DNA from: an uncultured virus (IMG/VR IMGVR_UViG_3300037249_000775)
Taxonomy: Duplodnaviria > Heunggongvirae > Uroviricota > Caudoviricetes
Reading direction: 5' to 3' (one strand)
IMG/VR virus record: IMGVR_UViG_3300037249_000775
DNA: 64,000 nt
In this document: positions 19,330 through 58,686 of the stretch, piece after piece
How positions within the stretch are numbered: position 1 is the first letter of the stretch
Layout of the letters: every line of letters starts with the position of its first letter
Notes under the pieces: generated by a model
What the model was told of the DNA's origin: nothing
Seen by the model: only the letters and a program-made list of their open reading frames with translations
Databases searched by the model: none
Translations under genes and position numbers: made by a program

Positions 19330-19446
19330 AAAATTAATAGATAAATATTTTAAAATATTTATCTATTAATTTGATTTAAAGAAATACGGCGAAGCCGTAA
19401 TATAGTAAGTACCACTATTATATTATATTAGTAATTAGAAATAATT
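19330..19446 (-). ncRNA. Candidate late small RNA
   Basis: AACA-aaaagg-TA (19446-19457, minus) to terminator hairpin ~19332-19372; contains the GC hairpin TACGGC-TTC-GCCGTA; no ORF start inside. Confidence 0.4.
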
Positions 19447-19497
19447 ACCTTTTTGTTCTTGAAAAAATAGAAAATAATTCAGTATAAACAATAATGT

Positions 19498-21587: not shown

Positions 21588-21605
21588 TTTTTTGTAAATA
21601 TTAAA

Positions 21606-21678
21606 GGGAGTTATGCTTTATCCCGAGTTTAAATCAAAGCAATGTCAACCCCCGGACGGTAACAGTGGGGAGAAAGGA
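21606..21678 (+). ncRNA. Tandem-pseudoknot 5' leader, copy A
   Basis: GGGA/TCCC + TGCTTT/AAAGCA; TGTC/GACG + CCCC/GGGG; then AGAAAGGA RBS. Confidence 0.7.
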
Positions 21679-21683
21679 CATTT

Positions 21684-22118
21684 ATGTCCAAAGCAATAAT
21701 CAATCTTCCATCAATTGACATGAGCACAGAGTTTACTGAAAACGCTTCTATTTGTGATTCTCTTGCAGTAATTGAAGAGAATCTGAAAACGGCATTGGAA
21801 TTAAATTACATCGCCGCAAAAAAATATTGTGGTAAATCAGTTGACGCGGTAGTTTCCATCTTTAAATATATAAAGGAAGCAACGGGTGATGGTTTTCATA
21901 GTGATATGAATATCATGATGTATAGAGACGGACTCTACAAGTTTCTTTCCGAGGTGTTTCAGAAAGAAACACTCGGTAATGAGCTTGAGGATATTAATGA
22001 TGAACTTGTAGAGTTCATCATCAATTATCGTTCGCAATATACATTTAATGAAGTTGGTGAAACTCTTAAGCATTATATGCTTATTGAAAAAGACGTTGAT
22101 GAGGATGAATATTTTTAA
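21684..22118 (+). CDS. Early accessory hypothetical protein
   Basis: Stand-alone cassette: early promoter, structured leader, RBS, terminator ~22153-22190. Confidence 0.8.
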   Translation: MSKAIINLPSIDMSTEFTENASICDSLAVIEENLKTALELNYIAAKKYCGKSVDAVVSIFKYIKEATGDGFHSDMNIMMYRDGLYKFLSEVFQKETLGNELEDINDELVEFIINYRSQYTFNEVGETLKHYMLIEKDVDEDEYF

Positions 22119-26215: not shown

Positions 26216-26405
26216 AAATATATAGACGTTGTATATTTATATACAACGTCTATATTAGAAGTGTGACTTGAAAATCAGTAGGACTCTTAATAATTTGTTT
26301 TTATTACTTTGTTTAAGTATTGGAATTAAATATAATTTATACAAAAGTTATATATTATTTTTTCGTAAGACTATCAAATATTTTTACAAGAAAGGGGCAG
26401 ATTCA

Positions 26406-38012: not shown

Positions 38013-39065
38013 ATGGCTGATAGAGTTTTAAAAGTAAAAGATAAAGTATCTTTAATTGATAAACATAATTCAACTGTATCAACACCATCTCAAGAGTCTC
38101 ATGGATTATGGGCTAAGACTAAAATTATGGGATCGTACGATGATGTTATGTATGATAAAAACGGTATTCCTTTTTTTGGTAAAAAAATACCAACTGGAAA
38201 AAATAAATTAGGAGAAACTATTTTTAGAACTGAAAGGACGAAGCCAATATTTAGTGAAGAAAATATGGTTACATTAGGTGGTTGTCAATATGCAATGGAA
38301 AAACTCTTCGGAGTTAAGAATGACTATATTGATGTACCAACAATGTATTCCAAACATGGAATTGGCTATGAAGATTCTACCCCACCGTCTGGTGATGGTT
38401 ACACTTATACAACTCCTGACGGTGTTAAGAATACAATTTATCGTTATGGTCATTTTGTTCAGTTGTTTGGCGTTGGTATTACTGGTACTGCTGAAAATGA
38501 TATTACAGTACATCCAGTTGATTATAGAGAAAACGATATTGATATTTCTAAAGTAACTACTGATGGTTTAACATTAGAAGGAAAAATGGTTCCATTTAGA
38601 TATACTGCCGAGGATCTTTCTTCTATTGATAGACGAAAATATTTTGGTAAAAAAAGTGACGAAACGGGTGTTATTTCATATTATCTTAAAAGATTTGAGA
38701 ATACTCCATCTATTAAACATATTTGGAAAACTGGAGATGATTATGAAGCTGAAATAATGGTTTCATCCCAGGAAATATGGGAAGATAGTGTTCATCATAA
38801 TGCAGTTGAATCATTTACTGATGTAGTTTTAAAAATTACAAAAAAAGATGTAAAAGAATGGTTTACATATCTTGAACAAGAAGACAGATCAAGAATTAAT
38901 ACAATTGCTTTGTTTACTGGCGAATATGTTGATCCGCCAGCAGGTTCTACATCAGACGTCGGTGATTATCGAGATGTGAGATTATTCTCTAAACTTAATA
39001 TTCCTACAGAATATCTTGTATTAAATAAAGATTTGAATATTATTTACAGAGTGTATACAAGCTAA
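38013..39065 (+). CDS. Probable baseplate/tail-collar-fold structural protein
   Basis: ENMVTLGG, FGVGITG, INTIALF, LFSKLN...LNIIYRVY pattern typical of tail-fibre attachment folds; late promoter 37962-37973. Confidence 0.55.
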   Translation: MADRVLKVKDKVSLIDKHNSTVSTPSQESHGLWAKTKIMGSYDDVMYDKNGIPFFGKKIPTGKNKLGETIFRTERTKPIFSEENMVTLGGCQYAMEKLFGVKNDYIDVPTMYSKHGIGYEDSTPPSGDGYTYTTPDGVKNTIYRYGHFVQLFGVGITGTAENDITVHPVDYRENDIDISKVTTDGLTLEGKMVPFRYTAEDLSSIDRRKYFGKKSDETGVISYYLKRFENTPSIKHIWKTGDDYEAEIMVSSQEIWEDSVHHNAVESFTDVVLKITKKDVKEWFTYLEQEDRSRINTIALFTGEYVDPPAGSTSDVGDYRDVRLFSKLNIPTEYLVLNKDLNIIYRVYTS

Positions 39066-39112
39066 TAATTAAGAATAGATTAGGAAAATCCTAATCTATT
39101 CTTTTTTATTTA

Positions 39113-39145
39113 TCCGTATTTTTAATATATATATTGATATATTAT
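39113..39145 (+). promoter_or_regulatory. Early promoter (TCCGTA box + TATATTAT)
   Basis: Identical to 21555 and 32198 copies; follows terminator 39071-39107. Confidence 0.8.
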
Positions 39146-39165
39146 TTTTGTGTAATAAAATATCT

Positions 39166-39237
39166 GGAGTTATGCTTCTCCTATGTCTAATTAAAAAGCG
39201 GTGTCATCCCCAAGACGGTAACAATGGGGAGAAAGGA
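39166..39237 (+). ncRNA. Tandem-pseudoknot 5' leader, copy C
   Basis: GGAG/CTCC + TGCTT/AAGCG; TGTC/GACG + TCCCCA/TGGGGA; then GAAAGGA RBS. Confidence 0.7.
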
Positions 39238-39242
39238 CATTT

Positions 39243-39632
39243 ATGTCTAACAGTTATTATTTTATAAATATTACAAATCATCCTGCTGCAAAATGGTCAG
39301 CGGAACAGCTTGATTCCGCTAAGAGATATGGAAATGTCGTGGACATACCGTTTCCACAAATTTCACCAACAGCAACTCAAGATGAGATTAAAAAGATGGC
39401 AAAAAGCCTCGCTGCAGACATTTGCGGCACATATCAGATTGGGGATGGTGCACTGGTGCAGGGTGAAATGACTTTCACTTATGTGCTTGTACATGAGCTG
39501 CAAGCACGTGGAATTGTATGCTTTGCTGCTTGTAGCGAGCGTGTAACTGAAGAGGTTGTTAATCCTGACGGAACGACTACCAAAAGAAGTACATTCAAAT
39601 TCGTGCAGTTTAGGGAGTATCCTACTTTCTAA
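39243..39632 (+). CDS. Csx20-like ring nuclease (candidate type III anti-CRISPR)
   Basis: NHP..W..EQ, LVQGEMTFTY.LV, AACSER..EE...DG...K.S.FKFVQFREY resembles recalled Csx20-family consensus (LIQGDF..TY..V...ATT.R...E...DG...K.S.FKHVRFR.Y). Confidence 0.7.
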   Translation: MSNSYYFINITNHPAAKWSAEQLDSAKRYGNVVDIPFPQISPTATQDEIKKMAKSLAADICGTYQIGDGALVQGEMTFTYVLVHELQARGIVCFAACSERVTEEVVNPDGTTTKRSTFKFVQFREYPTF

Positions 39633-39754
39633 TCTGTACATAAAAAAGAGAGATGTTAAAGGAGGTGATTCATAAACCTCTCTTTTTTTTTGATTAATTA
39701 ATTATCATACAGATTTATAAGGGTTAAATAAGAAGAGAGAAAGGAGATGTTAAT

Positions 39755-40906
39755 ATGCTTAATGTTGGCGTAATTGGTTTAGGTAATACAGGTAACCAAA
39801 TTGCATCACTTGCGTATGAACAACTTAAAATCCCTGTAATGGCAGTTAATAGTAGTGAGAAAGATTTAGAGACTATTAATAATAATATTCCTAAAAAACT
39901 TATTACTGATGCTGATGGAGAATCTAAAGGAGCAGGAAAGAATAGACAACTTGCAAAGAAATATCTTAAAGATTCTATTATGACTTTTCTAAGTTCCGAG
40001 GATGTACAAGATTTCATTGGAGATTTAGACGTTCTTTTTGTTGTATCATCAACTGGTGGTGGAACTGGTTCTGGTACAAGTTTAATTATGTCATCTATTA
40101 TTGCAAGTATGTTTGTTGATGTTCATGTAATTACAATTGGTGTATTACCTGTAATGAATGAAGCTCTTTCAGCTCATGTAAATACACTTGAGTATCTTAA
40201 CGAGCTTTATAGTACTCTTGATGGACAGACATATATGCTTTATGATAATGATAAGTATTCAGGTATGCCGTCATACAAGATGATGAATCTTGTAAATGAG
40301 GAAGTAGTAAAAGATATTGATGTACTTAGATGTACTTATAATTATACAACGAAATATGATTCTATTGATGAGGAAGATATGAGAAGACTTATTTCTTTCC
40401 CCGGTAGAATTTTAGTTGCACGTCTTGAAGATATTAAAGAAAGAGATTTGGATAAAGATAGTATTGAGGATTTACTTATTAAAAAGATTAAGAGTAATGC
40501 TCATACAGAAATTCAGAGAGACCAGAAAGTTATTGCTACAGGTATTATTGCAAATCTTTCTGAAGCAGTATTTTCTGAATTTGATAATCATATTGAGAAG
40601 GTTAGAGATTTTATTGGTGATCCCGATCACGATTTTAATCATCTCTATGTTAATGAGGAAAGAAAAATGCCTAATAATGTATTTTTAATTATTGGTGGTC
40701 TTTCTGTAATTAATGACCGAATTGCTAAAATCTCCGATAGAATTGAAGAAATTGAGCAAAAGCAGAAAACACGAGAAGAGGAAAATTCATTAAACGATTT
40801 AGGTGTTAGCGAACTTTCTCAAAAGGTTTCTTCAAAAGATAAGAGTAAGAAGACAAGTGCTAGCAATGTTGATATTGCTGGTATTTTTAGTAAGTTTGGA
40901 ATTTAA
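39755..40906 (+). CDS. Tubulin/FtsZ-family GTPase (PhuZ/TubZ-like)
   Basis: GLGNTGNQIA, GAGKNR, GGGTGSG signature. Confidence 0.9.
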   Translation: MLNVGVIGLGNTGNQIASLAYEQLKIPVMAVNSSEKDLETINNNIPKKLITDADGESKGAGKNRQLAKKYLKDSIMTFLSSEDVQDFIGDLDVLFVVSSTGGGTGSGTSLIMSSIIASMFVDVHVITIGVLPVMNEALSAHVNTLEYLNELYSTLDGQTYMLYDNDKYSGMPSYKMMNLVNEEVVKDIDVLRCTYNYTTKYDSIDEEDMRRLISFPGRILVARLEDIKERDLDKDSIEDLLIKKIKSNAHTEIQRDQKVIATGIIANLSEAVFSEFDNHIEKVRDFIGDPDHDFNHLYVNEERKMPNNVFLIIGGLSVINDRIAKISDRIEEIEQKQKTREEENSLNDLGVSELSQKVSSKDKSKKTSASNVDIAGIFSKFGI

Positions 40907-40929
40907 AAATAATTTACTAACATATAAAT

Positions 40930-41053
40930 AAATCCAGAATGATTTGTAGAATATATTTTCATTTTTAACGTCCTTTAAAATTTTATTTTCAGACACAAAA
41001 AATTCCTTATTAAAAACTAGATACATTTAACTATGTATCTAGTTTTTAATTTT
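40930..41053 (+). ncRNA. Candidate late antisense sRNA (anti-RBS/start)
   Basis: AACA-tataaa-TA 40919-40930; CAT 40960, CGTCCTTT 40969-40976; hairpin 41010-41049. Confidence 0.5.
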
Positions 41054-41067
41054 ACTAACAATAAAGT

Positions 41068-41157
41068 AAGGTTGGATTTTGGTTTTTGCAATATCATGAT
41101 GATTGAGCGTCCTTTAATATATCGTATGCATCCGGTATGCATACGATATATTTTTTT
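41068..41157 (+). ncRNA. Candidate late antisense sRNA (anti-RBS/start)
   Basis: AACA-ataaag-TA 41057-41068; CAT 41095, CGTCCTTT 41108-41115; hairpin 41116-41152 then T-run. Confidence 0.55.
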
Positions 41158-41285
41158 ATTTTTACTTAAACTATAATTTAGCTTTAAATTATATATTATT
41201 TTTTGGACTTTGAACGATAATAATTTATAATGTTATCGACATTAGTCTAATTCTAAATTTTATAAAAAAGAAAGGGGTTATAGTT

Positions 41286-42254
41286 ATGAGTAAAAATAGT
41301 CATGACAATAACAAAAACAACGTAAGAATCCATGAAGACGCAAAAGAATTTTCGAAACTTAGTTTCAAAAAGTACAAGAAAAAGTACGGTAGTGACTATG
41401 ACCGAAAGAAAGAATGTCAAACAGGATTTTATTTATATCTGTTTGACCTTTTGCCAAGAACTATTGAATTTTGTGTAAAATACGGTTATATTAATGATCC
41501 TGAAATCCAGGAAGTTAAGAATGGTATTTATGCAAAAATAGTTGATGAGGATTTTGTAAAATACCTCAATAAAGAAATCAAAGGCGGAAATAAGATAGAA
41601 AATATCAAATGGATGCCGATTATTATTTCTGATATTCTTAAGCAGACTAATAAGCAGAATACAGAAATGCTTGCACAAGACCCGAATGCAAAGATTTATG
41701 ATATGTCTGATCTTGTTGAACTTTCTCAAATTATATTGAAGAAGAAGCTTAAGAAGTTTAACAAGTTTGCAATTGAAAATAATCTTGCATTTGATATTCT
41801 GTCAGTTATTCCTACTGACAATGTTCTGAATTCATCTCAGAATTATAGAATTGCTACATTTATGAGTGTGCTTTATGAACATGCAAAAACAGAGGCTATT
41901 CCATTTAAGAGTATCATGGAAGTACTTGTAGGGGATGAATATTATCCAATATTTATTATATTTACTCTCCTCGAGAGAAAAGAGAAATTTGGACAGTTGA
42001 ATGATTCTCAGAAAGCATTTTATCTCGAGGTAACAAATTGGATTTTCGATACAATGGAAAATCAGTTATCCAAAGAACAGCTTAATGAAATTATCCGTGT
42101 ATACATCAACGCAAGAAAACGTGATGATTCAAAGGGTACAGATACAAATCGTCGTTATCAGTTGTCTTCACTTGTTGAAACAGATTTCCCAAAGATTACA
42201 TCTGTTGTAAAGAAATTTATTTCAAATGATGCTGGAGTAGCAAAATATCTTTAA
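41286..42254 (+). CDS. Hypothetical protein
   Basis: AGAAAGGGG RBS; TATATTAT at 41192; hairpin leader. Confidence 0.8.
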   Translation: MSKNSHDNNKNNVRIHEDAKEFSKLSFKKYKKKYGSDYDRKKECQTGFYLYLFDLLPRTIEFCVKYGYINDPEIQEVKNGIYAKIVDEDFVKYLNKEIKGGNKIENIKWMPIIISDILKQTNKQNTEMLAQDPNAKIYDMSDLVELSQIILKKKLKKFNKFAIENNLAFDILSVIPTDNVLNSSQNYRIATFMSVLYEHAKTEAIPFKSIMEVLVGDEYYPIFIIFTLLERKEKFGQLNDSQKAFYLEVTNWIFDTMENQLSKEQLNEIIRVYINARKRDDSKGTDTNRRYQLSSLVETDFPKITSVVKKFISNDAGVAKYL

Positions 42255-42340
42255 TTAATAAATGTACAAATCATGTATAGATGATGGAGATCCATCATCT
42301 ATACATCAAAAAAAAAATAAAAAATGAGAGGATTATAAAA

Positions 42341-43336
42341 ATGAAAATTTATGAACTTACGATTGGAAACATTACAGATGAGTCAAGAAAACCTGCTGTT
42401 TCATTTGTAAAAAATGATAATAATGATTTACTGAAAAACTTTATTGAGTTTAATAGTACAAGAGATAGAATTTATATCGATTATAATATAGTCGATGATC
42501 TCGATATATTTTATCTTTATGAAACTGATAGTAATTCTAAAATTGAAAATCAATATGGTAATAATACAGATTTTCAATTACAGGTTTCTGATTTAAAATT
42601 GAGAAATTCAAATATTAGTAATATTTTTGTTGATAGAAGTAGTATGACAACATTACCAAATATTACTTCTTGTAATAGTAATATTGTTGCTGGAGATGAT
42701 ATGTTAATATCTATTGCATTTGATACAAGAAGATTTTCTCTTGTAAAAACATATAATGATGGAGGCGAAACCATTCTCACTCGTTATAGCAAATTTGATG
42801 AATCGTGTTCGGCTGTTATGAAATTCAATAGCGTTTACAATAGTCTAATGCGTACAGTTACAATTTATCTTTTTGATAAGGTCCTAGGTAATTTTGTTAA
42901 ATTTCTTGCGACATTTAAAAAAGGTAATGATTATTCATTTGGTTTATTTAATTATGATGAAACTGAAGCTGGTTATTTTAAAGTTGCTTCATCATATAAA
43001 CCTGAACGACTTACATCGTTTAAACTAAAGTTTGATACCATACCTACAAGGTATGTTATTTATAATCCAGATAAAATAGATAAAGGCGTACTACTCAATA
43101 AAATTGAAAATCAATCTGGTTTTACTCCCATTCTTGTTAGTTGGAGAAAAATAAAAGCTGATGAAAATCTTGAGAATTTAATTAAATTTCTTGATGATTC
43201 ACTGGTATCAAAACATGTACGTTCTATTACACTCTATGGTATAGAAGAAAGTATACCATTCAGTGTATTTAAGAATATGAAAAATGTCTTTTTCGTAGAT
43301 GTTTCCGGAAAAGTCATATGCGTTAAATCTAGTTAA
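42341..43336 (+). CDS. Hypothetical protein (paralog of next gene)
   Basis: GAGAGG RBS before ATG 42341; FKLKF..IPT.YVI and ..SITL...NVF...ICVKSS shared with 43353. Confidence 0.75.
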   Translation: MKIYELTIGNITDESRKPAVSFVKNDNNDLLKNFIEFNSTRDRIYIDYNIVDDLDIFYLYETDSNSKIENQYGNNTDFQLQVSDLKLRNSNISNIFVDRSSMTTLPNITSCNSNIVAGDDMLISIAFDTRRFSLVKTYNDGGETILTRYSKFDESCSAVMKFNSVYNSLMRTVTIYLFDKVLGNFVKFLATFKKGNDYSFGLFNYDETEAGYFKVASSYKPERLTSFKLKFDTIPTRYVIYNPDKIDKGVLLNKIENQSGFTPILVSWRKIKADENLENLIKFLDDSLVSKHVRSITLYGIEESIPFSVFKNMKNVFFVDVSGKVICVKSS

Positions 43337-43352
43337 AAGGAGATAAAAGAAA

Positions 43353-44324
43353 ATGAGATTATTTAACGTATTAATTGCTCCTGAGGGAGAAAATCCTATC
43401 AAAGATAAATTCAATAAAAATGAATTTACATTTGTTAAGGATAGTGTAAAAATCAATAATAAGTATATTGGTGATACTTTAATTAACCAAAGACTTAGAA
43501 TTGATAAATTTATTGATACAGATGCCGTAACACCGATTACTAATATCGGTAGTGAAGAGCATACATTGTATAGTTATAAGACATACGACGTGGTTAGCGG
43601 AGTTGATACAGACGTAGTTCTTAATGATAAGACTCTTAATCCGTTGCTGTTGAAAACTAAGAATCCTAATAATTATGGACTCGCTTATATTACATTTGAT
43701 CCTAAATATATGCTAGTTGATTATTCTGTAGAATCTTATGATAAGATTATTTCAACATTTCATAGAAGAGATTTCTACGGTTGCGTAGTATATTTTGATA
43801 AAAAGAAACATGCTAATGATGTATCTAGTATATTGTCAATAACTGCTATAGATACAACTAAGACAAAGAAGCCTGTTGTTAATATTGAAGTTACAATTGA
43901 TCCTGATTCAGACTCATCTATCGTAGTTTCTTATTATATAAAACCTGATTCAGATGTAGAAAATAAATCTCATAAGCAGAAACCAAATAGATTTAAGCTT
44001 AAGTTAAATCCGCATAAAATTCCAACAGCATTTGTTATTGTTGATGGGCATGATGACAACGAGCTTGGTGATGTAACAGCTTCTACAAGACTCGATGAAA
44101 TCTGTATTTCTAAGCAAGTAGTATATGTTGAACTTGGAGATCACAAGATTGATGACCCTGAATTTATTCAATATTTACAGGATATTATTAATGAAAGTCA
44201 TTACAAGTCAGTAACACTTGCTGATGTATATATGCCAAATGCTATTATTAAGAAGCTTGGTCTTATTAATGTATTCACATATGATTCAGCTAAGAAAATT
44301 TGTAAATGTATTAGATCTTCATAA
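43353..44324 (+). CDS. Hypothetical protein (paralog of previous gene)
   Basis: AAGGAG RBS; FKLKL...IPTAFVI, KSVTL...NVF...CIRSS. Confidence 0.75.
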   Translation: MRLFNVLIAPEGENPIKDKFNKNEFTFVKDSVKINNKYIGDTLINQRLRIDKFIDTDAVTPITNIGSEEHTLYSYKTYDVVSGVDTDVVLNDKTLNPLLLKTKNPNNYGLAYITFDPKYMLVDYSVESYDKIISTFHRRDFYGCVVYFDKKKHANDVSSILSITAIDTTKTKKPVVNIEVTIDPDSDSSIVVSYYIKPDSDVENKSHKQKPNRFKLKLNPHKIPTAFVIVDGHDDNELGDVTASTRLDEICISKQVVYVELGDHKIDDPEFIQYLQDIINESHYKSVTLADVYMPNAIIKKLGLINVFTYDSAKKICKCIRSS

Positions 44325-44440
44325 TTAAATTAGCTGTATAGTTATATATTATTTAAAAGATAAAATGTAGTTCTTGTAATTTTATATTTACAAGAACTAC
44401 ATTATAAAATAAAAAAATAAAATTTGAAAGGACGGTTACT

Positions 44441-44944
44441 ATGAGTAACAAAAACAAAAATGATAAGAGTAAGAGAATTGAATATGTGGTTTATTGCGAC
44501 AAGCATACTGGTAAATCAGGAAAATTCAAAGGAAACAAAAAAGAAGTAAAAGCGTTAAAACGAGGATGCCCTCATTATAGTTATAATAAAAAAGGGAATC
44601 TTAAACCTATCTTCTTTAATGACGGACATGGTATGTGCTTCTGCAAAAGATGTAGTAATACTTTCCCAGCAAAACTGATCGAAGGTAAAACATTTGAAGA
44701 CGGTTGCAATACGGTCATTGGTTATCTTGACCAAGCAATCGTTGGTGCAATAGCAATTGGGGCAAATAATAAAACTATTGAAAGTTTGTCTCAAACAAAA
44801 GTTACGTTACACACATTCAAAAAGAAAACATATCCGAGAATTATGAAAAGCGTGACAGCAACGGATAACATTAAAAATAAGAAGAAGAAAAATCGCAATA
44901 GCGGTAATACGGCTTATGGTTCATGGGGATCAGGCAGAAGATAA
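44441..44944 (+). CDS. Basic Zn-finger-like hypothetical protein
   Basis: CPH...CFCKRC; TATATTAT at 44345; hairpin leader. Confidence 0.75.
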   Translation: MSNKNKNDKSKRIEYVVYCDKHTGKSGKFKGNKKEVKALKRGCPHYSYNKKGNLKPIFFNDGHGMCFCKRCSNTFPAKLIEGKTFEDGCNTVIGYLDQAIVGAIAIGANNKTIESLSQTKVTLHTFKKKTYPRIMKSVTATDNIKNKKKKNRNSGNTAYGSWGSGRR

Positions 44945-45151
44945 GAATATAATATAAATAAATTTAATTAGTGAGAGATAAGCACGGGAATTTCCCGTGC
45001 TTATCTTATTTTTTGTTAAGTTTTTAATATAGTATTCGAGGGAGTATTCGTGTAAGTTTCTATGTTCCAAACAACAAAAAATTAAGGAGAAAAATATCTT
45101 ATAATTTATAGAGATATTTTTCATAATTTTTCTGAAAGAGAGGATTTAATA

Positions 45152-47638
45152 ATGTCTAATACAAAAGATGTTAAAATGTATTATGTTGAATCCGACATAG
45201 AGAAGATTCAAACAAAAACAAATTTATATTTAACTTCTTATGGTTCAGATGGAGCTTTCCATTTAACTAGAGAAGTTATTCAGAATAGTATAGATGAGTG
45301 TATTGACCCAGATTCACCGGGTAGTAAAATATATATCATGTATGATATCGATAATGATACAATGACTGTTGAAGATGATGGACGTGGATTTCCTGAAGCA
45401 GATTATCCTATGGATATATTTTGTACTAAAATTCAATCAGGTTCTAAATTTTTTAGAACACAATCTGGCGGTACATCTGGAGAATTTGGTTTGGGTTTAA
45501 CAGCAGTAAACGCATTGTCTTCAATGTTTATGCTCGATAGTTATAGAGAAAAAGAAAACTATAGACATAGGATTATATTTGAAGACGGTAAGAAAATTGA
45601 AGATACAAAAGAAAAGAGGTCAAATAAAGACCATGGTTGTATTGTAAAATTTTCACCGTCCAAAAGATTCCTTGGACCTAAAACAGTTATTCCATATCAA
45701 GATGTAGTAACTTGGGTTGAGAAAATGAGTTATTTTATTCCTAAAGGAATTGAAATAAAAATAGAGATACTTAAAGGTTTTAAAATTAAAGAAAAATATA
45801 AATTTAAAGCACAACCTTTTATATCTTTATTAGATACCATTTGCCCCGATAAGAATTATTCACCTAAATGCGAATTTTCAGGTGAGAGTGAAATTGAAGA
45901 AAATGTTAAGATGCTTGGAAAAAATTCAAAAGTCGTAGAAAAGACTTTGAAGAAGAGTATTCATCTTGATGTTGCTTTAAGATATTCACCCGAATCAATA
46001 ACTATGTATGATAGTTATTGTAACTTTACAAATACAACTGAGGGTGGTGTCCATCAGAATGCTCTCGAAAATTGTTTTTGTAGATATATGCTTTCAAAAG
46101 CAAGAGCTACACAAACCGATGCTCAAAAAGAAAAGTATCCTATTAAATGGGAAGATATTAAAATGGGTTTGTGTGTGATTATAAATCTTACAACTGGTGC
46201 TCAAGTTGGATTTGTTGGTAATGCTAAACAAAAAATCGGTAATGAAGAATTAACACCATATCTTGTAGAAATTATTAATACTAATATGGATAAGTTCTTT
46301 ACTGATAATCCAAAAGTTCTTGATGAGTATATTAAGATTATTAAACTTAATACAAAAGCACGTGTTGAGATGCAGAAAGTAAAAAATGCAACGCAAAGAG
46401 AAAGAATGAACTCATTTAAAGAGTATGAAATTAAGAACTATATAAGATGCAATAATACTGGTAAGAAGTTTAAAGAACTCTTTTTAACAGAGGGTGATTC
46501 TGCTGGTGGTAGTGCGTCTAATGGTTCTAATAAAGATACACAAGCTTTTTTATTATTTAGAGGAGTTGTTGCTAATCCGTTAAAATGTTCATTGTCTGAT
46601 ATCATGGAGAATGAAGAATGGAGAACATTTGTAACGGTTCTTCGTTGTGGTATTGGTAAAAACTTTGATATCAATAAGTTATATTTTGATAGAATTAATA
46701 TCTTTACAGACTCAGATTCTGATGGATATGGAATTAGTTCAGGTATGATTGTATTTATTTACACATATCTTAGACCGCTTATTGAAGCTGGTAAAGTATA
46801 TAAAGTATTTTCACCACTTTATCGAATTGATGATAAAGAACATCCATTTGTAGTTAATAAAGCCGAAATGGTTGAACTCTTTCAAAAGAAGGTTGCTAAG
46901 CATTATAAAATAGAAAGAGTTGATAATGGATATAAGTTTAGTAAAGATGATATGATTGAGTTTCTTCAAGATACCTATGATTACTCAAGTAATTTGATTA
47001 GAATGTCAGATAACTTGGGACATGTTAATAAGTTCTTGGTAGAACGTATTATAGCTCTATTGGTTATTTCAGATGTTATTCATAGTAGTAATGGAAAATT
47101 TGATAATGATAAAGTTAATGATGGACTTAAGTCTATTTTAAGTAAACAAAAATTCATTAAAGAATTTATGTCATTAATTCAAGAAAAATATCCTGAGATT
47201 AAATTAAATTCAGATACACAAACATTGAGTGGTGTAGTTGACGGTAAATTCTGTTCTATCAAGATTAATCATAGATTTGTTAAACAGGCGGAAGATTTAA
47301 TTCCTATTATTGAAAAATATCATTATCTTTTAAATGTAAAAGAAAAAGGTAAAGATGAAACTGTTATTTTAACAATAGGAGAATTTCTTGACCAAACAGT
47401 TAAGCTTTCAAGTAAAATCTTAACAAGATACAAAGGACTTGGTGAACTTAATGCAGACCAAATGTTTAATACTGCGTTAGATATTAATAATAGAGTTTCT
47501 ATTCAGTATACAGTTGAAGATGCAGAACGTGAAGTAGAAACTTTTAAGAAACTTTTTGGTCAAGGTAAAAATGATTTGAAACAACGAAAAGATATGATGG
47601 CTAATTATAAAATTAGTCGTGATGATCTCGATAACTAA
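45152..47638 (+). CDS. gyrB: DNA gyrase / type IIA topoisomerase subunit B
   Basis: EVIQNSIDE, DDGRGFP, SGEFGLGLTAVNALS, TEGDSAGG, TDSDSDG, RYKGLGE. Confidence 0.95.
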   Translation: MSNTKDVKMYYVESDIEKIQTKTNLYLTSYGSDGAFHLTREVIQNSIDECIDPDSPGSKIYIMYDIDNDTMTVEDDGRGFPEADYPMDIFCTKIQSGSKFFRTQSGGTSGEFGLGLTAVNALSSMFMLDSYREKENYRHRIIFEDGKKIEDTKEKRSNKDHGCIVKFSPSKRFLGPKTVIPYQDVVTWVEKMSYFIPKGIEIKIEILKGFKIKEKYKFKAQPFISLLDTICPDKNYSPKCEFSGESEIEENVKMLGKNSKVVEKTLKKSIHLDVALRYSPESITMYDSYCNFTNTTEGGVHQNALENCFCRYMLSKARATQTDAQKEKYPIKWEDIKMGLCVIINLTTGAQVGFVGNAKQKIGNEELTPYLVEIINTNMDKFFTDNPKVLDEYIKIIKLNTKARVEMQKVKNATQRERMNSFKEYEIKNYIRCNNTGKKFKELFLTEGDSAGGSASNGSNKDTQAFLLFRGVVANPLKCSLSDIMENEEWRTFVTVLRCGIGKNFDINKLYFDRINIFTDSDSDGYGISSGMIVFIYTYLRPLIEAGKVYKVFSPLYRIDDKEHPFVVNKAEMVELFQKKVAKHYKIERVDNGYKFSKDDMIEFLQDTYDYSSNLIRMSDNLGHVNKFLVERIIALLVISDVIHSSNGKFDNDKVNDGLKSILSKQKFIKEFMSLIQEKYPEIKLNSDTQTLSGVVDGKFCSIKINHRFVKQAEDLIPIIEKYHYLLNVKEKGKDETVILTIGEFLDQTVKLSSKILTRYKGLGELNADQMFNTALDINNRVSIQYTVEDAEREVETFKKLFGQGKNDLKQRKDMMANYKISRDDLDN

Positions 47639-47650
47639 GGAGGTCTAAAA

Positions 47651-50470
47651 ATGGCAGAAAAAATTATAAAAGAAAATGTTGCAGATGCAGCCGAAAGATA
47701 TTCGTGTATTTTCGGTGCAAATAAAAATTTGTATAGAACAATTCCGTCTATGCAAGATGGATTGACTTAAAAGGTTTAGTCCATGTAAAACCTCTCTAAT
47801 TGCGGGGAAGTTACGTAAGTATCAATTACTAAACTATAAGTGATATTATAGTGGCAATGGGTAACTCCAAAGGTATAGTAACAAGATTGATAATGTAACA
47901 ATCGACGCAGCGAAGTATCTCAAAGTATGAGATATAAGTTCAACGACTATCGAAAGCTATATAATCATATAGAAATATATGGTTTGAAAATAAGGTAGAG
48001 TGAAATATCTACACGAAGTGAGTAGAGTAACGCCCAAGTGTTTGGGGTTGGTAGTTAGATGAGATTAGTCTAACGTAAATCCATTAAAGTGAAACGGGAG
48101 GCTCTAATATATTTGGTAATAGAATATATTAGATGAAGATATAGTCTAGTAATAAATATTACTGTAAAACCTGGAAAAAGACGTTTGTTTTATGCTTGGT
48201 GGGAAAATGCAGGAAAACCAACTAATACAAAAAAAGAAACTTTAAATAAGTTAAAGTTCCAAAAAGTTCATAATATCGCATCATGGTCAATGATCTATCA
48301 TCCGCACTCGGTCGATTCTAATGAGGAAATTGTTGCTAATGAAGGTCAAGATTGGAATAATAATGTATTAACAGTAGTTCCTCAAGGTAACTTTGGTTCT
48401 ATTCGTGGAGATAGACCAGCATCTGGAAGATATACTGAAGCAAAAATGAGTGAATATCTTATTGATTGCTTCTTTGATGATTTTTATAAGTATTCTATAC
48501 CTATGAAAGAATCATATGATGGTGAACGAGTTGAACCTGAATTTCTCCCAGCAAAATATCCACACGCTTTATTTAATCCACAACTTTCTGGTATTGGTTA
48601 TGGATTAGCATCAAATATTATATCGTTTAATGTAGCTGAAGTTCTTAAAGCAACTATTAAGTTGATTAGAGACCATCATGCTAAAATTATGCTTATACCA
48701 GATATTCCGACAGGTGCAGAAGTTGTTGATACTGGTTTATTTAAAGAAATAAATAAAACTGGTGTAGGAAAAATAACAATGAGAGCATCTGCAGAGATTG
48801 ACCATAATAAAAATATTATTAGGATTACATCTCTTCCATTACAGATGTCATCAATGCAAGTTATCAAAAAGATTATTGAAAAGAAAAAGAAAAATGAATT
48901 TCAAGAAATTATTGAGATACTCGATTATACAAAATTAGGTAAAACAGATATTCGTATTCAGTTAAAGAACGATGTTAATCCTGATAAAGTATTAAAGAAG
49001 CTTTATAACAAAGGAACTGGATTGAAAGATACATTTCCTGTTTGTATAAAGCTTATTGATGATTACCGTGAGTTTGATTATGGTATTAAGTCATTCTTAA
49101 AAGAATGGATAGAATATCGTAGAGATGTTGTGCGTTCCATGTTCTCTAACGATCTAATTCAAACTATGGAGAAACAACATATGAATGAAGTTCTTCTCTT
49201 TGTATTTAATGAAGATAATGCGGAGAAGACTTTGAAGATATGTAAAAAATCTAATAGTAGAAAAGAGACCATTGAGAAACTTCAGAAAACTTATGATATT
49301 ACATCTCTTCAAGCTTCTACTATTGCTGATATGCGATTGTATAATTTTAATAAAGATTCATATCAGAGATATAAAGAAGAGAAAAAAGCTCTGGCAGAAA
49401 ATGTTGATAGAATTATGAATATTCTTGATAATGAGAATTTGATTGATGATTTTATCATTGAGCAGTTAGAATCAGGTATAAAGAAGTATGGTCAGCCAAG
49501 ACGTTCTAAAATAGTAAAAGAAGATTCTGAATTGGATATTGAACAAATTCCTGATACAGAACATTTGATTGCTATTACTGAAACAGGAATTATTAAGAAG
49601 ATTAATCTTGATAAGTTTGATACTATTGGAGTTGTTGGTAAGAAATCAGATAATTTCTCTGTTATAAGAATTAAGAATAGAGAAGATATTTTAATAATTG
49701 ATTCTCAAGGTGAAGGAATCCGTATTCCCGTATCATCACTTCCTGATATGGATATTAATGATACTGGTGTTGAGTTATCAAGATATTTTAAATGTACTGG
49801 TAAAATTGTGAGTATGTTAAAACTCAGTGATACAAGTATGTTAAAAGATAAACATATCACGATAACATTAGTAACAAAATGGGGACTTTGTAAAAGAGTC
49901 AAGATGTCTGAATTTAAAGGATTATCTGGAACACGAAGTCTAATAACTCTTAATGATAGTGATGAACTTGTAGCAGCATTATTCACATTAGATGATGACA
50001 ATAGTGATATTATCATTTATACTAATGGTGGTTATGGTGTAAGAATACCTGTTAAAGATATAAAAATATCTGGTAAAGCAGCTAAAGGTACAAAACAAAT
50101 TAATTTATATAGTGATGCAAATATAATTGAGAATGTAATTAATGCAAATATAATTGATTCCTCTAAGAAAACATTACTCTATGTTACAACAAGTGGTAAA
50201 ATGAAAGTAACACAAGAGAAATATTTTCCAAGACAGAAAAGAGGAGACGATTCGTTACAATTGATTACATTGGATATAGGGAAGAATGAACAACTATTAT
50301 ATGTAGCATCAGTAAGTCATAAGAAAGATACTGTACGAGTTTATTTTAAGAATAAAGAACCGGTTGAATATAAGTTAAACAATCTTAAATTAACAACACG
50401 AATAGCTAAAGGTGAAAAAGTAGTTAAAGTTCCTAGAGGAGAATCAGTTGTTAGTATAAAGATTATATAA
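47651..50470 (+). CDS. gyrA: DNA gyrase / type IIA topoisomerase subunit A, spliced: exon 1 47651..47762, exon 2 48165..50470 (805 aa)
   Basis: AAGGAGG RBS at start; splicing restores DGLKPGKRR; QGNFGS, catalytic RYTE, GIGYG; C-terminal beta-pinwheel repeats. Confidence 0.92.
47763..48164 (+). mobile_element. Group I intron (402 nt, no homing endonuclease ORF)
   Basis: 5' splice U47762 pairs with G47779 in P1 (exon ATGGAT / IGS GTCCAT); core elements AATTGCGGGGAA (P), AATCGACGCAGC (Q), GTTCAACGACTA (R), AAGATATAGTCT (S); terminal G48164; IGS GGTTTA can pair with exon 2 TAAAACC (P10). Confidence 0.92.
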
Positions 50471-50552
50471 TAATTAATGCAGATAAAGAATATATTCTTT
50501 ATCTGCATTTTTAATAAATTTATATATATATTATTTTAGTGTAAATATTAAA

Positions 50553-50624
50553 GGGAGTTATGCTTTATCCCGAGTTTAAATCAAAGCATTGTCATCCCAA
50601 GACAGTAACAGTGGGAGAAAGGAG
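50553..50624 (+). ncRNA. Tandem-pseudoknot 5' leader, copy D
   Basis: GGGA/TCCC + TGCTTT/AAAGCA; TGTC/GACA + TCCCA/TGGGA; then GAAAGGAG RBS; TATATTAT at 50527. Confidence 0.7.
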
Positions 50625-51174: not shown

Positions 51175-51391
51175 ATTATTATCTACAATAATAGTATTGA
51201 TACAGATATGTTTAAGAATTGTACATCCCTTAAAAACCGACCAATATTGATGATTATAAAACAATCATCAATATAACCAACACAATTAAAGAATAAGCGT
51301 GTGATAATATTATCGCACGCTTATTTTTTTATTTTTCCCTTAAAAAACAAATAGTTAATATATGACTTTAAAATAAAGGAGGAATATATAA

Positions 51392-53179
51392 ATGCATGTT
51401 TCTATTAATACGGATGCTGTATTAAATAGTAATCCTACAAAAAGGTTAATCATTGCTTTTGAAAATCTTAAAAAAGATTATACAGAAGAAAATGCAAAAG
51501 AATATATGAATTTATATAAAGACCGATCTCTCGGTTTTATTATTGAAAATTCAAGATATATTTTTTCAGAACCTTTTTTTGGTTATGAATTTTATAAAGA
51601 TGTAATTAATAATCCATATGCAATATTAATTACTGAATATGGAAATGAATGTGATAAAGTTTCTGACTTTGTAGAAGAATATGGTAAACAAATGGGTCTT
51701 ACACAAAGAACTATGTATGAATCATTATCTACAATTTTGGAATCTAAAAGTCATGATTATTCAAATACGATTACTGTTTTAAATCATGCATTCTTAAATG
51801 AATCTGTTAAAACTGCATATGATAATTTGATTCAACTTGTTTATGAACATGATAATTATGTAATAAATGATAAAACTAGTAGAGAATGGAATAATCTAAT
51901 TACTGAATCATTATCAGATATTGATAGTGCTGATATATTCTATACACTTACTCCTTATTTAAATAAGGTTGCCAATGTCAATGGATATTTATCATCAAAT
52001 CTTGATAATTATTTTTCCGAATGTAGTATTGAGAATGATAGAATCGATCATGATGAGTGGAAGAAATTTATCGAAAGCACTATTATTGTTTCAAAGTTAT
52101 ATCATGATGATGTTTATGTTGAAGCAGTAAATGGTTTAACTGGTCATGATAAATTATTACTATCATCAATGGCAGTCGAATCAATAAAAGACCAAATTAA
52201 TGATTTGAACATTAGATATGTTGGTGAATCATCAAATGATACATTTGACTGTTATTATTCTACACCTATGAATGCTGTTAATAAAGTTTTTGAAGATAGT
52301 AATTTTTATAGTATTTTCAAAGAAGATAATGAAGCAATTAAAGAGGAACGTACAAAATTGAGAGAATTTTCATTAGATTTAATCAGAGAGTACGTTGAAA
52401 TTGATTTCTATAATTCTAATGATATTGAAGATACTATTGAAGGTTATAATTTTTTTGAAGACGGAACAAGTATTGAAGATGCATATATGATGATTAGCGA
52501 ACGTGTATCAGGCGAACCATCTAAAACAATGAAGAATTTTACATCAGATTATAATGAAAAGAGTGAAGAAAAAAAGAAAAAATCTTTTAATCCTTTTCAT
52601 AACGATGATGAAGATGAGGATGATTCACCAAAAAAAGGTTCCGCCCCTAAAGCGAGTTTAGCTAGAAAAATTCAACATTCAGCAATGGATGAAGAATCAA
52701 ATAAATATAAAAAAATGGCTGATAATGAGCAGAAGGGGCAAGAAATAAAGAATGCAGTAAAAGCAGTTTATAAAACTGCTACTACAATACCAAGTAATGT
52801 TAGTGGTAAAATTAAAAGTACCATTAAAGAATGGGATGAAGCTGATGATGAGAAGAGAAAGAAATATATGGCTGAACCTGGATTTAGAAAAAAATATTTT
52901 AGAAATCTAAAGTTAGCTTTAATGTATGGTGCAACAGCATCGGTTAATCCGCTTTTATTACCTATAGCATTTATGGGTAGACATATGTCAAAAGAAAAAA
53001 ATAAAAGAATTAGAAATGAATATGTAAAAGAACTTACAACAGAAATTAAAGTATGTGAAGAAAAAATTCAAGATGCTCAATATAATGGAGATAAAGCAGA
53101 AAAATATAAATTAATGCGAATTAAAGGTCAACTTGAACAACAATTGTATCGTGTTAAGATGAATAGTAAATATGCATAA
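51392..53179 (+). CDS. Probable head-associated protein
   Basis: Late promoter 51346-51357; AAGGAGG RBS; many hydrophobic-x-E(S/A) sites; located in capsid cluster. Confidence 0.6.
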   Translation: MHVSINTDAVLNSNPTKRLIIAFENLKKDYTEENAKEYMNLYKDRSLGFIIENSRYIFSEPFFGYEFYKDVINNPYAILITEYGNECDKVSDFVEEYGKQMGLTQRTMYESLSTILESKSHDYSNTITVLNHAFLNESVKTAYDNLIQLVYEHDNYVINDKTSREWNNLITESLSDIDSADIFYTLTPYLNKVANVNGYLSSNLDNYFSECSIENDRIDHDEWKKFIESTIIVSKLYHDDVYVEAVNGLTGHDKLLLSSMAVESIKDQINDLNIRYVGESSNDTFDCYYSTPMNAVNKVFEDSNFYSIFKEDNEAIKEERTKLREFSLDLIREYVEIDFYNSNDIEDTIEGYNFFEDGTSIEDAYMMISERVSGEPSKTMKNFTSDYNEKSEEKKKKSFNPFHNDDEDEDDSPKKGSAPKASLARKIQHSAMDEESNKYKKMADNEQKGQEIKNAVKAVYKTATTIPSNVSGKIKSTIKEWDEADDEKRKKYMAEPGFRKKYFRNLKLALMYGATASVNPLLLPIAFMGRHMSKEKNKRIRNEYVKELTTEIKVCEEKIQDAQYNGDKAEKYKLMRIKGQLEQQLYRVKMNSKYA

Positions 53180-54203: not shown

Positions 54204-55991
54204 ATGTTAAATTTTTTAACGGAATCTTCTAAAGATTTCAAAGAGACTGAAACTATTGGTGCATTCAGTAATGGCGTAGATAGAAACTCCTTTGATCATA
54301 TTTTTACAGAGGCTTATGAGAATCTTCTTGGTAAGAATGTAGATCTTTTGAGAGATGTAAATACTGTAATTAATAACAAGGCTATTCTTGCTAGCTTTAA
54401 GGATCAGTTACTTGGTGAGTTAATGACAGAGTGTGCTGAGATGGAGCAGGATCCTATGCAGTATGGTACACACGCTAATCGTTATAGCCAGGTATCTGAT
54501 ATGTTTGACAACTGTGTTGATGATTTCCTTGTTGAGTCTACAAGAGTTGGTAACCTTCTTCCGATTAAGGCTATTGATTTCCCTGTACTTGTAAAGCAGG
54601 CTCTTAAGCTTACATCTAATGATATTATCCAGACAGAGGTTACAAGAACACCTGTTATTAAGAAGCACCTTGAGCAGACATATATCGTTGATAGCAACGA
54701 CAAGACAAAGAGATGGAAGTATCCTCAGTGTTTCTTCACTGGTGAGTTTATGGAAGCATTTAATGCTGGTAAGGGTCTTCCGATTAGTACTACACCTGTA
54801 GCCGTTTCGGCTATCAAGAATTACGATATCGTTCGCAATCTTACGACAGCAGTTAATCCTGCTCGTGAGTTTATCACATTTAATCTTCAGATTACAAAGG
54901 CTATTGTAGAGGATACACATGGTGAGGAAGTTGAGATTGTTCTTAATCCTCCGATGAGAATCAATATGTCCGATAATACATGGCTTGGTGGTAAGATTAA
55001 GAAGACAGTTAAGGATTCTGTTGGTGATGATCTTGAAGTTGATGATCTTATCATGGGTATGATTGACTTCACAACAAATAGCACAAGTATTTCTACCGTT
55101 ACAGGTCAGGTTAAGAAAGTTGTATTTGGTGGTTATCTTTCTAATGAGCTCAACGAGAGAAGCGTAACATTTGATTACTCACGTGAAGAGAGAGAGTGGA
55201 AGATTGAAGATGGTACAAGAGTAGACGTTCCGTATAGCCTTGAGGAGCTTGAGGATACAAAGGCACTCATGGATATTGATCTTTACAAGAAGACATACAA
55301 TAACCTTTCAGATTATCTTATCCAGATGGAGGATAGTCAGGTATTGACATGGCTCGATGAGCAGTTTAAATTTTATAAGGGTGTAGAGATTCCTGAGGAT
55401 GATATTCTTGGTTTCGGTGGTTGGATTTCTGAGAGAATCTTCGATGCTGACTCCACATCTATTACAACAGCTCTTCCGGTTGAGTATATTCAGAAGATGC
55501 TTAAGTTCAAGATTGATGGTATCATTACAGATATTTGTGATACAGCAAAGCTTGAGAACATGACATTCGTTATTTATGGTAACCCGAGATATGTTCGTTT
55601 CCTTGATCCTGAGGTTAAGTGGGTTACAAGACCTGGTTCTTCTTCGAATGGTGTAAAGCTTGATTACAGCTATGGTATCATGACATCTGGTGATGTTAAG
55701 GTACAGGTTGTATCTACAAAGAAGGTTAATGCTAAGTATGATGCAGATGAGAAGCTTCATAAGGGTCTTAGAATTATCCCGTTCCCGCTTTCGAATGAGC
55801 AGATGACATTTAAGCATTATAAGTATACAACTCATATTCTTACAGCTCAGAACTCTGCATACAGAGCAGCAGATCGTCCGGGTGGTTCTATGACTAACCT
55901 CATGGGTGTATCTCGTTATACAAACGCATCCGTTCAGGCTATTCAGACGGAGCTCGACTTCATGAATCTTGAGCCATGGGTTAAACTTTAA
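54204..55991 (+). CDS. Major capsid protein (probable)
   Basis: Strongest codon bias in the window (AAG/GAG/CAG/CTT); own late promoter 54115-54126 and terminator ~56023-56061; N-terminal propeptide-like region ending FLVES; near terminase. Confidence 0.72.
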   Translation: MLNFLTESSKDFKETETIGAFSNGVDRNSFDHIFTEAYENLLGKNVDLLRDVNTVINNKAILASFKDQLLGELMTECAEMEQDPMQYGTHANRYSQVSDMFDNCVDDFLVESTRVGNLLPIKAIDFPVLVKQALKLTSNDIIQTEVTRTPVIKKHLEQTYIVDSNDKTKRWKYPQCFFTGEFMEAFNAGKGLPISTTPVAVSAIKNYDIVRNLTTAVNPAREFITFNLQITKAIVEDTHGEEVEIVLNPPMRINMSDNTWLGGKIKKTVKDSVGDDLEVDDLIMGMIDFTTNSTSISTVTGQVKKVVFGGYLSNELNERSVTFDYSREEREWKIEDGTRVDVPYSLEELEDTKALMDIDLYKKTYNNLSDYLIQMEDSQVLTWLDEQFKFYKGVEIPEDDILGFGGWISERIFDADSTSITTALPVEYIQKMLKFKIDGIITDICDTAKLENMTFVIYGNPRYVRFLDPEVKWVTRPGSSSNGVKLDYSYGIMTSGDVKVQVVSTKKVNAKYDADEKLHKGLRIIPFPLSNEQMTFKHYKYTTHILTAQNSAYRAADRPGGSMTNLMGVSRYTNASVQAIQTELDFMNLEPWVKL

Positions 55992-56092
55992 TTATATTTA
56001 ATATTTTAATTAGTATATATTTAAAGCATCGTAAGATTTTATTCTTACGATGCTTTTTTTTAAATTAAAAACTATTTTTATAACAATATAGT

Positions 56093-56176
56093 AAGCATCT
56101 ATGTTTTGTTTTATCGACAAGCAAACCATAAATAAATTAAAGAGATAACATCTATTTGTTATCTCTTAATTTTTTT
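56093..56176 (+). ncRNA. Candidate late small RNA
   Basis: AACA-atatag-TA 56082-56093; CAT 56127 but no clear anti-SD; hairpin ~56135-56171 then T-run. Confidence 0.45.
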
Positions 56177-56187
56177 AACATTATAGT

Positions 56188-56287
56188 AATAATTAGAATT
56201 TTCTGTTAATTTTTGACACATTTTTTCTCTCCTTATTTATATATGCAATATTGAATAGAGTAACACTACTCTATTCAATATTTTTTT
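56188..56287 (+). ncRNA. Candidate late antisense sRNA (anti-RBS/start)
   Basis: AACA-ttatag-TA 56177-56188; CAT 56219, CTCTCCTT 56227-56234; hairpin 56247-56282 then T-run. Confidence 0.55.
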
Positions 56288-56351
56288 AAACATAGTTGAT
56301 ACAATAATATAAGTTAGTGTAATATTTAAAGATAAGAAAGGAGAAAAATAA

Positions 56352-57852: not shown

Positions 57853-58686
57853 ATGAAGTACGATAGAAAAACAGAAAATAAATCATTTATTGATATGTGG
57901 CATCATCTTCAGCGTTATAATATTGAAAATAATATTTTTATGCTTGGAACTAGAGATAGTATGTTATTAGAATTTTCTATGGATAAATGGAATTCTTTTC
58001 CTCGTGCCACTGATGGTGATTATAAAGTTCTTGAGGGTTTTAGATATAGACTTATTGATGAAATTAGAGAAAATATATGGTTTTACTTTAGAGAAATTGT
58101 ATTTGTACCTGATAAAGAAAATCCTGGTAAGTTTAAACACTTTAATTTAACTCCACAAACAATGATGATGATTTATTTATACATTAATAATAGTTCATAC
58201 ATCACAACAGAAATAAATGATGATATTTTAATGACTCAATATTTTTTGTGGGCATATAATAGACATTTTAAAAATAATGATATGATTATTACTAATAGTG
58301 TAAGTAACACAAATAATATTATCAAAGATATTGATTGCTCAATATTAAATTCAAAAACTCCAGTTCCATTAGGAACTAATGAAATGATAAGTGATAGTTT
58401 TAGACGTTGTATTTTTATTAATGAAAAAACTTTTACTGATTCTTTTGATTTATTCACATACGTAAATAAAGAATATAAAAAATTTATTAGTATTAATTAT
58501 TGGATGGATAAAAATAAAGTATTATTTACATTAGATAATGGAAGTATTAATTTATATAATAGAGTAGTTCAATTAAATAAAGAATATAAATTATATCTTT
58601 TAGGAAATAACGATAATAGTGAACTTGACAAAGCAGGAGTCCTTCTTTACGATAAAGATAAACTAAAAGATATATATTTAATTTAA
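57853..58686 (+). CDS. Degenerate paralog of the terminase N-terminal region
   Basis: NKSFIDM..HL....I.N..FML and NIWFYFREIVFVPD align to terminase NTTFLQV..DL...GIKN.FFML and NPWYYLREISRIPD; no Walker A. Confidence 0.65.
   Translation: MKYDRKTENKSFIDMWHHLQRYNIENNIFMLGTRDSMLLEFSMDKWNSFPRATDGDYKVLEGFRYRLIDEIRENIWFYFREIVFVPDKENPGKFKHFNLTPQTMMMIYLYINNSSYITTEINDDILMTQYFLWAYNRHFKNNDMIITNSVSNTNNIIKDIDCSILNSKTPVPLGTNEMISDSFRRCIFINEKTFTDSFDLFTYVNKEYKKFISINYWMDKNKVLFTLDNGSINLYNRVVQLNKEYKLYLLGNNDNSELDKAGVLLYDKDKLKDIYLI

Follow-up and report, generated by a model that had tools for sequence, protein, structure and literature searches.

The best explanation that we can offer for a series of short promoter-to-terminator modules in the DNA of an uncultured rumen virus, which we hold at a probability of about 0.4, is that they are compact late units of an AR9-like giant phage yielding short RNAs that pair with translation starts. 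One of the modules, unit 1, forms a concrete candidate pair with a gene starting at position 44441, and another, unit 2, would have a second role as a leader. The window, i.e., the whole stretch of 64,000 nucleotides analyzed here (IMG/VR record IMGVR_UViG_3300037249_000775), comes from a rumen giant phage that is kin to Bacillus phage AR9. It is AT-rich (G+C ~28%) and codes for a PhuZ-like tubulin (39755-40906), topoisomerase II subunits, the major head protein (54204-55991), a terminase, and the beta subunit of a multisubunit-type RNA polymerase (10508-14818). The N-terminal part of the large terminase is matched by each of two adjacent ORFs (57853-58686 and 58698-60824), which may represent a gene that is split or interrupted; in AR9, the terminase annotation joins five pieces. 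No near match was recovered among deposited phages, where a search with the tubulin protein retrieved Bacillus phage G alone, at 27% identity. Tubulins with 43-74% identity are found in 60 metagenome contigs and in a complete 254-kb IMG/VR record (G001). A 2-kb contig (L002) is 96.6% identical to the window at the DNA level, the other metagenome relatives reaching at most 74% in tubulin. A search of the entire window against Rfam 15 gave no match at the gathering score.

Short late-type units and their promoters

The sequence-only reading of this DNA had described two tandem mini transcription units directly behind the tubulin gene, with the same design recurring at 19487, 56082, and 56177. 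At all five positions we recovered what it had seen, namely a late-type promoter motif, a CAT triplet 27-34 nt further on, and a hairpin with a T-run. We refer to these plus-strand sites as units A (19487), 1 (40919), 2 or U2 (41057), D (56082), and E (56177), and regard them as probably being real short late transcription units. Their parts, including the CAT triplets and the stretches complementary to a Shine-Dalgarno sequence (anti-SD), are as follows:

40919..40930, plus strand: unit 1 late-type promoter AACATATAAATA, with the predicted +1 at 40930
40930..41011, plus strand: unit 1 RNA body, with CAT at 40960-40962 and anti-SD CGTCCTTT at 40969-40976, mostly unpaired in the predicted fold
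41012..41047, plus strand: hairpin 1, preceded by an A-run and followed by a T-run, predicted terminator of unit 1
41057..41068, plus strand: unit 2 late-type promoter AACAATAAAGTA, with the predicted +1 at 41068
41068..41115, plus strand: unit 2 RNA body, with CAT at 41095-41097 and anti-SD at 41108-41115
41116..41159, plus strand: hairpin 2 plus T-run, from the predicted fold, with one arm common to the relative L003
19487..19606, plus strand: unit A, with promoter 19487-19498, CAT 19525-19527, anti-SD within 19535-19544, and hairpin 19560-19602
56082..56177, plus strand: unit D, with promoter 56082-56093, CAT 56127-56129, and hairpin 56138-56169, lacking an anti-SD
56177..56289, plus strand: unit E, with promoter 56177-56188, CAT 56219-56221, anti-SD CTCTCCTT at 56227-56234, and hairpin 56248-56281

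Unit A is oriented against its flanking minus-strand genes, and units D and E sit between the terminator of the capsid gene and gene 56352. The distance from the last A of the promoter motif to the first relevant CAT is 27 (A), 30 (1), 27 (2), 34 (D), and 31 (E) nt, and in four of the five, with unit D as the exception, an anti-SD follows 5-12 nt beyond it, as had been described. Every unit closes with a strong stem-loop containing G+C and a subsequent T-run, the form of an intrinsic terminator, and the predicted RNAs fold as an open body followed by this hairpin (fold z-scores of -7.3, -4.8, -2.8, -5.5, and -5.1 for the five). Hairpin 1 probably also terminates the tubulin mRNA. The composite pattern motif-N26-34-CAT-N4-12-antiSD has four matches in the window, all of them in units, and 0-2 at each of ten other offset bins; by this measure, the resemblance of the reverse complements to ribosome-binding sites goes beyond chance.

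The motif at the head of the units can be read against AR9, for which a dRNA-seq study gives a late promoter consensus AACA-(6N)-TA/G, whose last base is the transcription start, and an early consensus AAATATATATTAT-(6N)-G (PMC5312081). AACA-N6-TA, which is present in all five units, equals the AR9 late consensus, and nine intergenic copies lie 28-77 nt upstream of genes, including the capsid gene; both the consensus and this placement agree with the late-promoter interpretation that had been proposed. The TTTACT element said to precede the motif is found in units 1 and 2 but not in the other three. In its loose form, AACA-N6-TA occurs 19 times in intergenic DNA against an expectation of 6.8 ± 2.6, a count reached in 0 of 500 shuffles. 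There is no overall enrichment in the window (48 observed versus 92 expected), the motif being depleted in coding DNA (29 copies in 59 kb). The strict form AACAWTAWWGTA has four copies where 0.4 would be expected, and all four are inside units. For the early class, at least ten gene-proximal TATATTAT octamers are found in the window, each with a G after six bases.

The scan for further units composed of the motif and a terminator, which had been suggested together with the original observation, returned two more, both on the minus strand:

19331..19457, minus strand: unit A', with a late-type motif at 19457-19446, 74 nt, and a hairpin at 19371-19332
26220..26313, minus strand: unit F, with late-type motifs at 26313 and 26299 reading into a two-way hairpin at 26255-26220

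Unit A' has no ribosome-site mirror and diverges from unit A, their predicted starts being 52 nt apart. Near unit F, the ORF list places a gene start at TTG 26268; ATG 26406, supported by an SD and by an early-type promoter at 26351, is the start favored by the sequence (26268-26405). A further late-type motif, at 51400 on the minus strand, lies over the start codon of gene 51392, a real late gene (stretch 51292-51400). The RNA predicted from it would run antisense across the SD of that gene and end at the upstream hairpin; this motif may be a chance occurrence.

According to the mechanism that we propose, the AACA-N6-TA promoter would be read by the phage's own non-virion RNA polymerase, followed by 45-80 nt of mostly unpaired RNA and an intrinsic terminator, giving a non-coding product of ~85-120 nt. 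Four of the five unpaired bodies mirror a translation start, with counterparts of the start codon, spacer, Shine-Dalgarno sequence, and upstream leader. Our inference is that such short RNAs build up and, by pairing with translation initiation regions, would block ribosome access late in infection and repress translation. Such an antisense action on translation starts is a plausible proposal.

Complementarity to gene starts

The sequence-only reading had found no exact target in the window; it had missed a near-exact match between unit 1 and the start region of a gene 3.4 kb downstream (44441-44944). The unit 1 segment 40969..40989 (plus strand) is complementary at 20 of 21 positions to 44414-44434:

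44414..44434, plus strand: candidate target of unit 1, comprising 5'UTR and SD, at -27 to -7 of gene 44441-44944
44345..44352, plus strand: early-type promoter octamer upstream of gene 44441

A match of 21 nt with at most one mismatch was obtained in none of 5000 full shuffles and in none of 5000 that preserved the anti-SD, and a 19-nt match in 6/5000 and 9/5000, respectively. When all 49 gene starts are compared with the window, no other non-local antisense match is as good, and its 18-mer occurs with zero mismatches at these two places only. The predicted interaction would comprise a 12-bp and an 8-bp duplex separated by one mismatch, over the SD of a gene with an early-type promoter. The alignment is in register to the ATG and partly reaches +4; it leaves out the first codons of 44441, to which the 30 nt at the 5' end of unit 1 show no match. 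Duplex energies barely separate 44441 (-25.4 kcal/mol) from the next gene start (-24.0 kcal/mol).

This genome also holds near-identical (96-97%) cassettes of early promoter, leader, and ribosome site, 33-54 nt long and in direct orientation before different genes, several of which we detected:

21579-21632 and 50527-50580: cassette duplicates
21655-21688 and 39214-39247: cassette duplicates
39159-39191 and the start of 31702: cassette duplicates

These duplicates suggest that regulatory cassettes are copied around the genome; because of them, the match between unit 1 and 44441 proves common descent and not function.

The trans-acting family that had been postulated is supported for unit 1, whose match is not equaled by shuffling, and within the window it finds no such backing in the others. 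For units A, U2, D, and E, none of the 49 gene starts of the window was a better-than-shuffled target, the observed best match being equaled in 300/300 (A), 46/300 (U2), 210/300 (D), and 143/300 (E) shuffles. Exact-match scans of host genomes with the mirrored start regions of E and U2, a narrow test, gave 0 matches each. Across the 254 kb of G001, eleven promoter-to-terminator candidates yielded no convincing antisense match; the one G001 unit of similar design, at 82556 on the minus strand, matches a real gene start at 18 of 20 positions, which is not significant (130/2000 shuffles).

The tubulin locus in relatives and in RNA contigs

In about 50 relatives, the tubulin gene adjoins the same following gene without units between them. 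Wherever both genes could be placed, the one comes directly after the other, with a spacer of ~110-200 nt, allowing for the start of the protein match to the following gene, versus 379 nt in the window. No units were found in the tubulin spacers of seven of these relatives or in that of L001, nor after the capsid gene of G001; at these two loci, the units are accordingly not conserved. Furthermore, the composite pattern is not enriched in the DNA of the relatives (3 matches in 746 kb, one being unit 1 of L002). In L003 (74% tubulin identity), a hairpin sharing an arm with hairpin 2 lies directly after the tubulin stop, which indicates that hairpin 2 is the ancestral tubulin terminator. By this comparison of sequences, ~205 nt, holding unit 1 together with the unit 2 promoter and body, form a recent, lineage-specific insertion before hairpin 2. 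The close relative L002 (1880-1999) keeps unit 1 and has a rearranged unit 2, whose 5' part continues into a duplicate of the 3' half of unit 1, with the loss of the CAT and half of the anti-SD; the contig ends at this point, and an assembly effect is possible.

Thirteen rumen runs recorded as RNA contain part of the window, and four runs were compared. A 402-nt intron (47763-48164) is spliced out in three of three RNA runs (junction of 47762 with 48165), and the junction is absent from run X15; hence, the RNA runs contain real RNA. The spliced gene is gyrase-A-like (47651-50470), and its intron has no Rfam match at the gathering score. The RNA evidence consists of assembled contigs, from which strand, true ends, and level cannot be read, and no discrete small RNA is seen among them. 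Tubulin contigs (depth ~16 and 9) end at 40993 and 40992 in two runs, ~20 nt before hairpin 1. In two of the three RNA runs, contigs of depth 222 (X1) and 95 (X3) have their first positions at 41076 and 41077, 8-9 nt past the predicted unit 2 start, contigs being unable to show true ends. Both cross hairpin 2, reaching 44904 and 44886, respectively. None among the listed contigs covers 40994-41075 or 56063-56301, which says nothing on absence.

As the RNA contigs are continuous from the body of unit 2 into the operon, hairpin 2 leaks, and unit 2 is at least partly an mRNA leader; it may be simply a leader. The same operon has an early-type promoter of its own:

41192..41206, plus strand: early-type promoter TATATTAT-N6-G of operon 41286-44944

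An early and a late promoter thus stand together before 41286, the arrangement that the AR9 study describes upstream of genes expressed throughout infection (PMC5312081). In our proposal, the promoter of unit 2, and perhaps that of unit E, would also feed read-through transcripts into the downstream operon, so that one promoter would yield both the short RNA and the mRNA leader, like the lambda-type PR'-tR' RNAs. Sequestration in cis by the unit 2 leader was considered and rejected: its anti-SD does not pair with the SD of gene 41286 in the fold. A degenerate third copy of TTTTACT is found at 41160 (41157-41180), and folding of the unit 2 leader is predicted to pair it with the stretch around the start codon of gene 41286 (41275-41295).

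Known systems and competing explanations

Short phage RNAs that pair with ribosome-binding regions or mRNA ends include sar of P22, OOP of lambda, and the prophage RNA DicF; of these, sar and OOP are always cis-encoded, facing a transcribed gene, and the target of DicF is a host gene. We know of none among these three that forms a multi-copy family with one promoter type. The c4 antisense RNA of P1/P7 is credited to Citron and Schuster (1990, cited in PMC8198154). It is reportedly encoded upstream of its target operon on the same strand and blocks downstream expression via short complementarity at the ribosome-binding region; it is said to be cut from the operon transcript, in the immunity region of a temperate phage. 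In the window, by contrast, every RNA would start from a late promoter and stop at a terminator of its own, and the phage is a giant one that encodes its own polymerases. The PeSLs of T4-type phages are small modules of promoter and hairpin at variable insertion points between conserved genes, which flank inserted ORFs and carry early promoters, whereas the units described here carry late promoters, with their own strand offering no plausible ORF. StxS and the lambda-type PR'-tR' RNAs share with the units a late promoter closely followed by a terminator upstream of an operon; the terminated RNA base-pairs, including with a gene of the same late transcript, and read-through gives the mRNA (PMC7547250). 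That source describes Q antitermination of the host polymerase, a temperate phage, and Hfq binding (PMC7547250), unlike the window, with the phage's own polymerase, no known antiterminator, and several tandem units.

The closest likeness comes from AR9 itself. Table S3 of the AR9 study lists seven antisense late starts, among them 75478 on the minus strand at g090 (step height 3757, the second highest in the table) and 115851 on the plus strand at g142 (step height 278) (PMC5312081). These are the two strongest antisense starts of that table, and by sequence both belong to intergenic promoter-to-terminator units of ~80 nt. They have the same promoter consensus as the window units, are intergenic, opposite to or between the flanking genes, and run for ~80 nt to a strong hairpin that doubles as the terminator of a neighboring gene, with a C-rich, anti-SD-like stretch in the body. 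They differ in that this stretch lies 5-11 nt from the start versus about 40 nt in the window units; in addition, the transcripts are filed in that study as antisense to neighboring genes and not as sRNA genes (PMC5312081). Opposite the two RNAs lie a 21-codon ORF with a strong SD and an ORF of 5 codons. Against 528 AR9 gene starts, the longest matches that they reached, each with one mismatch, were of 16 and 13 nt, and we saw no significant target among them. Further, unit 1 shares its 12-mer, letter for letter, with the promoter of the strong AR9 late start 208874 (step height 2101), listed in Table S3 under g244 with a 146-nt UTR (PMC5312081), behind which ARAGORN detects a tRNA-Asn. This tRNA lies at 208904-208977 (8904-8977 of L082), where the AR9 record consulted has no feature. 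Units running from a late promoter to a terminator hold both this tRNA-Asn and the sole tRNA of G001. Short late RNA units thus genuinely occur in this phage group.

The opposite strand of the units offers a quite different interpretation, which we consider rather improbable: the ORFs of 30 (A), 19 (1), 26 (2), 39 (D), and 20 (E) codons, of which the 19- and 26-codon ones had already been pointed out, could be real small genes, possibly for type I toxin-like membrane peptides, with the plus-strand RNAs as cis-antisense regulators covering the SD and start. Four of them have a good SD at normal spacing, tandem pairs are typical of type I loci, and in AR9 itself the strong short late RNA faces a 21-codon ORF that has a strong SD, although the second AR9 example faces an ORF of just 5 codons. 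The best case is unit A, whose ORF (30 aa, with a hydrophobic core) is on the strand of both flanking genes and just behind a hairpin that lacks a T-run on that strand, so that co-transcription could occur; such co-transcription with neighbors is possible for unit A only, and this unit may act in cis on the opposite strand. Yet the ORF lengths are within chance, with 30%, 19%, 15%, 12%, and 28% of 126 intergenic ATGs yielding ORFs as long or longer (p ~0.09 by Fisher combination of the five fractions, our own calculation). The peptides are mutually unrelated, that of unit A alone being membrane-like, and a comparison of their N-termini with 8988 ORF starts from the window and relatives gave chance-level 6/10 matches only. 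Near units 1, 2, D, and E, the minus strand has no late-type or consensus early promoter; the sole TATATTAT, at 56311 on the minus strand, lacks the start-position G found in all gene-proximal copies. From 38136 to 49831, the minus strand shows neither a late-type motif nor a consensus early promoter, which leaves the mini-ORFs of units 1 and 2 without a visible promoter, and in L002 the start of the unit 2 ORF is lost. That a late motif rare in coding DNA is tightly coupled to a mirrored ribosome site, with a terminator behind it, argues for the plus-strand RNA as the product.

Somewhat more credit, though it too is unlikely in our estimate, goes to the idea that we are looking at ordinary fittings of gene boundaries, in which the motifs are late promoters of the downstream operons, which have early promoters as well, the hairpins are terminators of upstream genes, the short RNAs have no role, and the mirrors are incidental. 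Unit 2 speaks for it most directly: RNA contigs starting just past its predicted start continue into the operon at depths of 222 and 95 versus ~16 for tubulin, its hairpin is the ancestral tubulin terminator, and the paired early and late promoters before 41286 are those of AR9 genes expressed throughout infection in the published data (PMC5312081). The position of units D and E between the capsid terminator and gene 56352 fits as well. This account leaves the CAT and anti-SD at fixed distance and the match of unit 1 to 44441 unexplained; units A, A', and F face away from genes, straight into a terminator, and unit 1 lies upstream of hairpin 1, so that serving the operon would mean passing two terminators. 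That the genome shuffles cassettes of promoters, leaders, ribosome sites, and terminators could also make the units recent junk insertions, including inverted copies of orphan ribosome sites. Their lineage-specific occurrence, the near-identical duplicates of 33-54 nt, the rearranged unit 2 of L002, and the degenerate TTTTACT copy at 41160 are all in keeping with such debris. However, decay would not be expected to leave four independent units in which a late motif rare in coding DNA is coupled to a mirrored ribosome site (27-31 nt) and a terminator, and AR9 transcribes units of the same build very strongly; we deem this origin as improbable as small genes on the opposite strand.

Returning to short late RNAs that pair with translation starts, a wider version of this explanation can be put forward as tentative and, on balance, doubtful: AR9-like giant phages would carry a modular, fast-evolving set of late sRNAs that act after the takeover by the phage's second RNA polymerase, silencing chosen phage genes that are transcribed early or continuously, such as 44441, and perhaps genes of the host. 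The units would arise by inverted copying of the start regions of their targets, and the AR9 RNA from 75478 would be a member. To our knowledge, two promoter classes are so far the only explanation offered for when genes are expressed in giant phages that encode RNA polymerases of their own; early transcripts persist, which raises the question of how early proteins are shut off late. Even if the units should prove to be no more than leaky leaders or debris, they show the AR9 promoter grammar reaching into uncultured rumen phages, with cassettes of promoters and terminators marking variable gene boundaries. If the antisense reading is true, late antisense RNAs at ribosome-binding sites would add a post-transcriptional layer, and a function would be assigned to the strong short late transcripts of AR9, a culturable phage in which the idea is directly testable.
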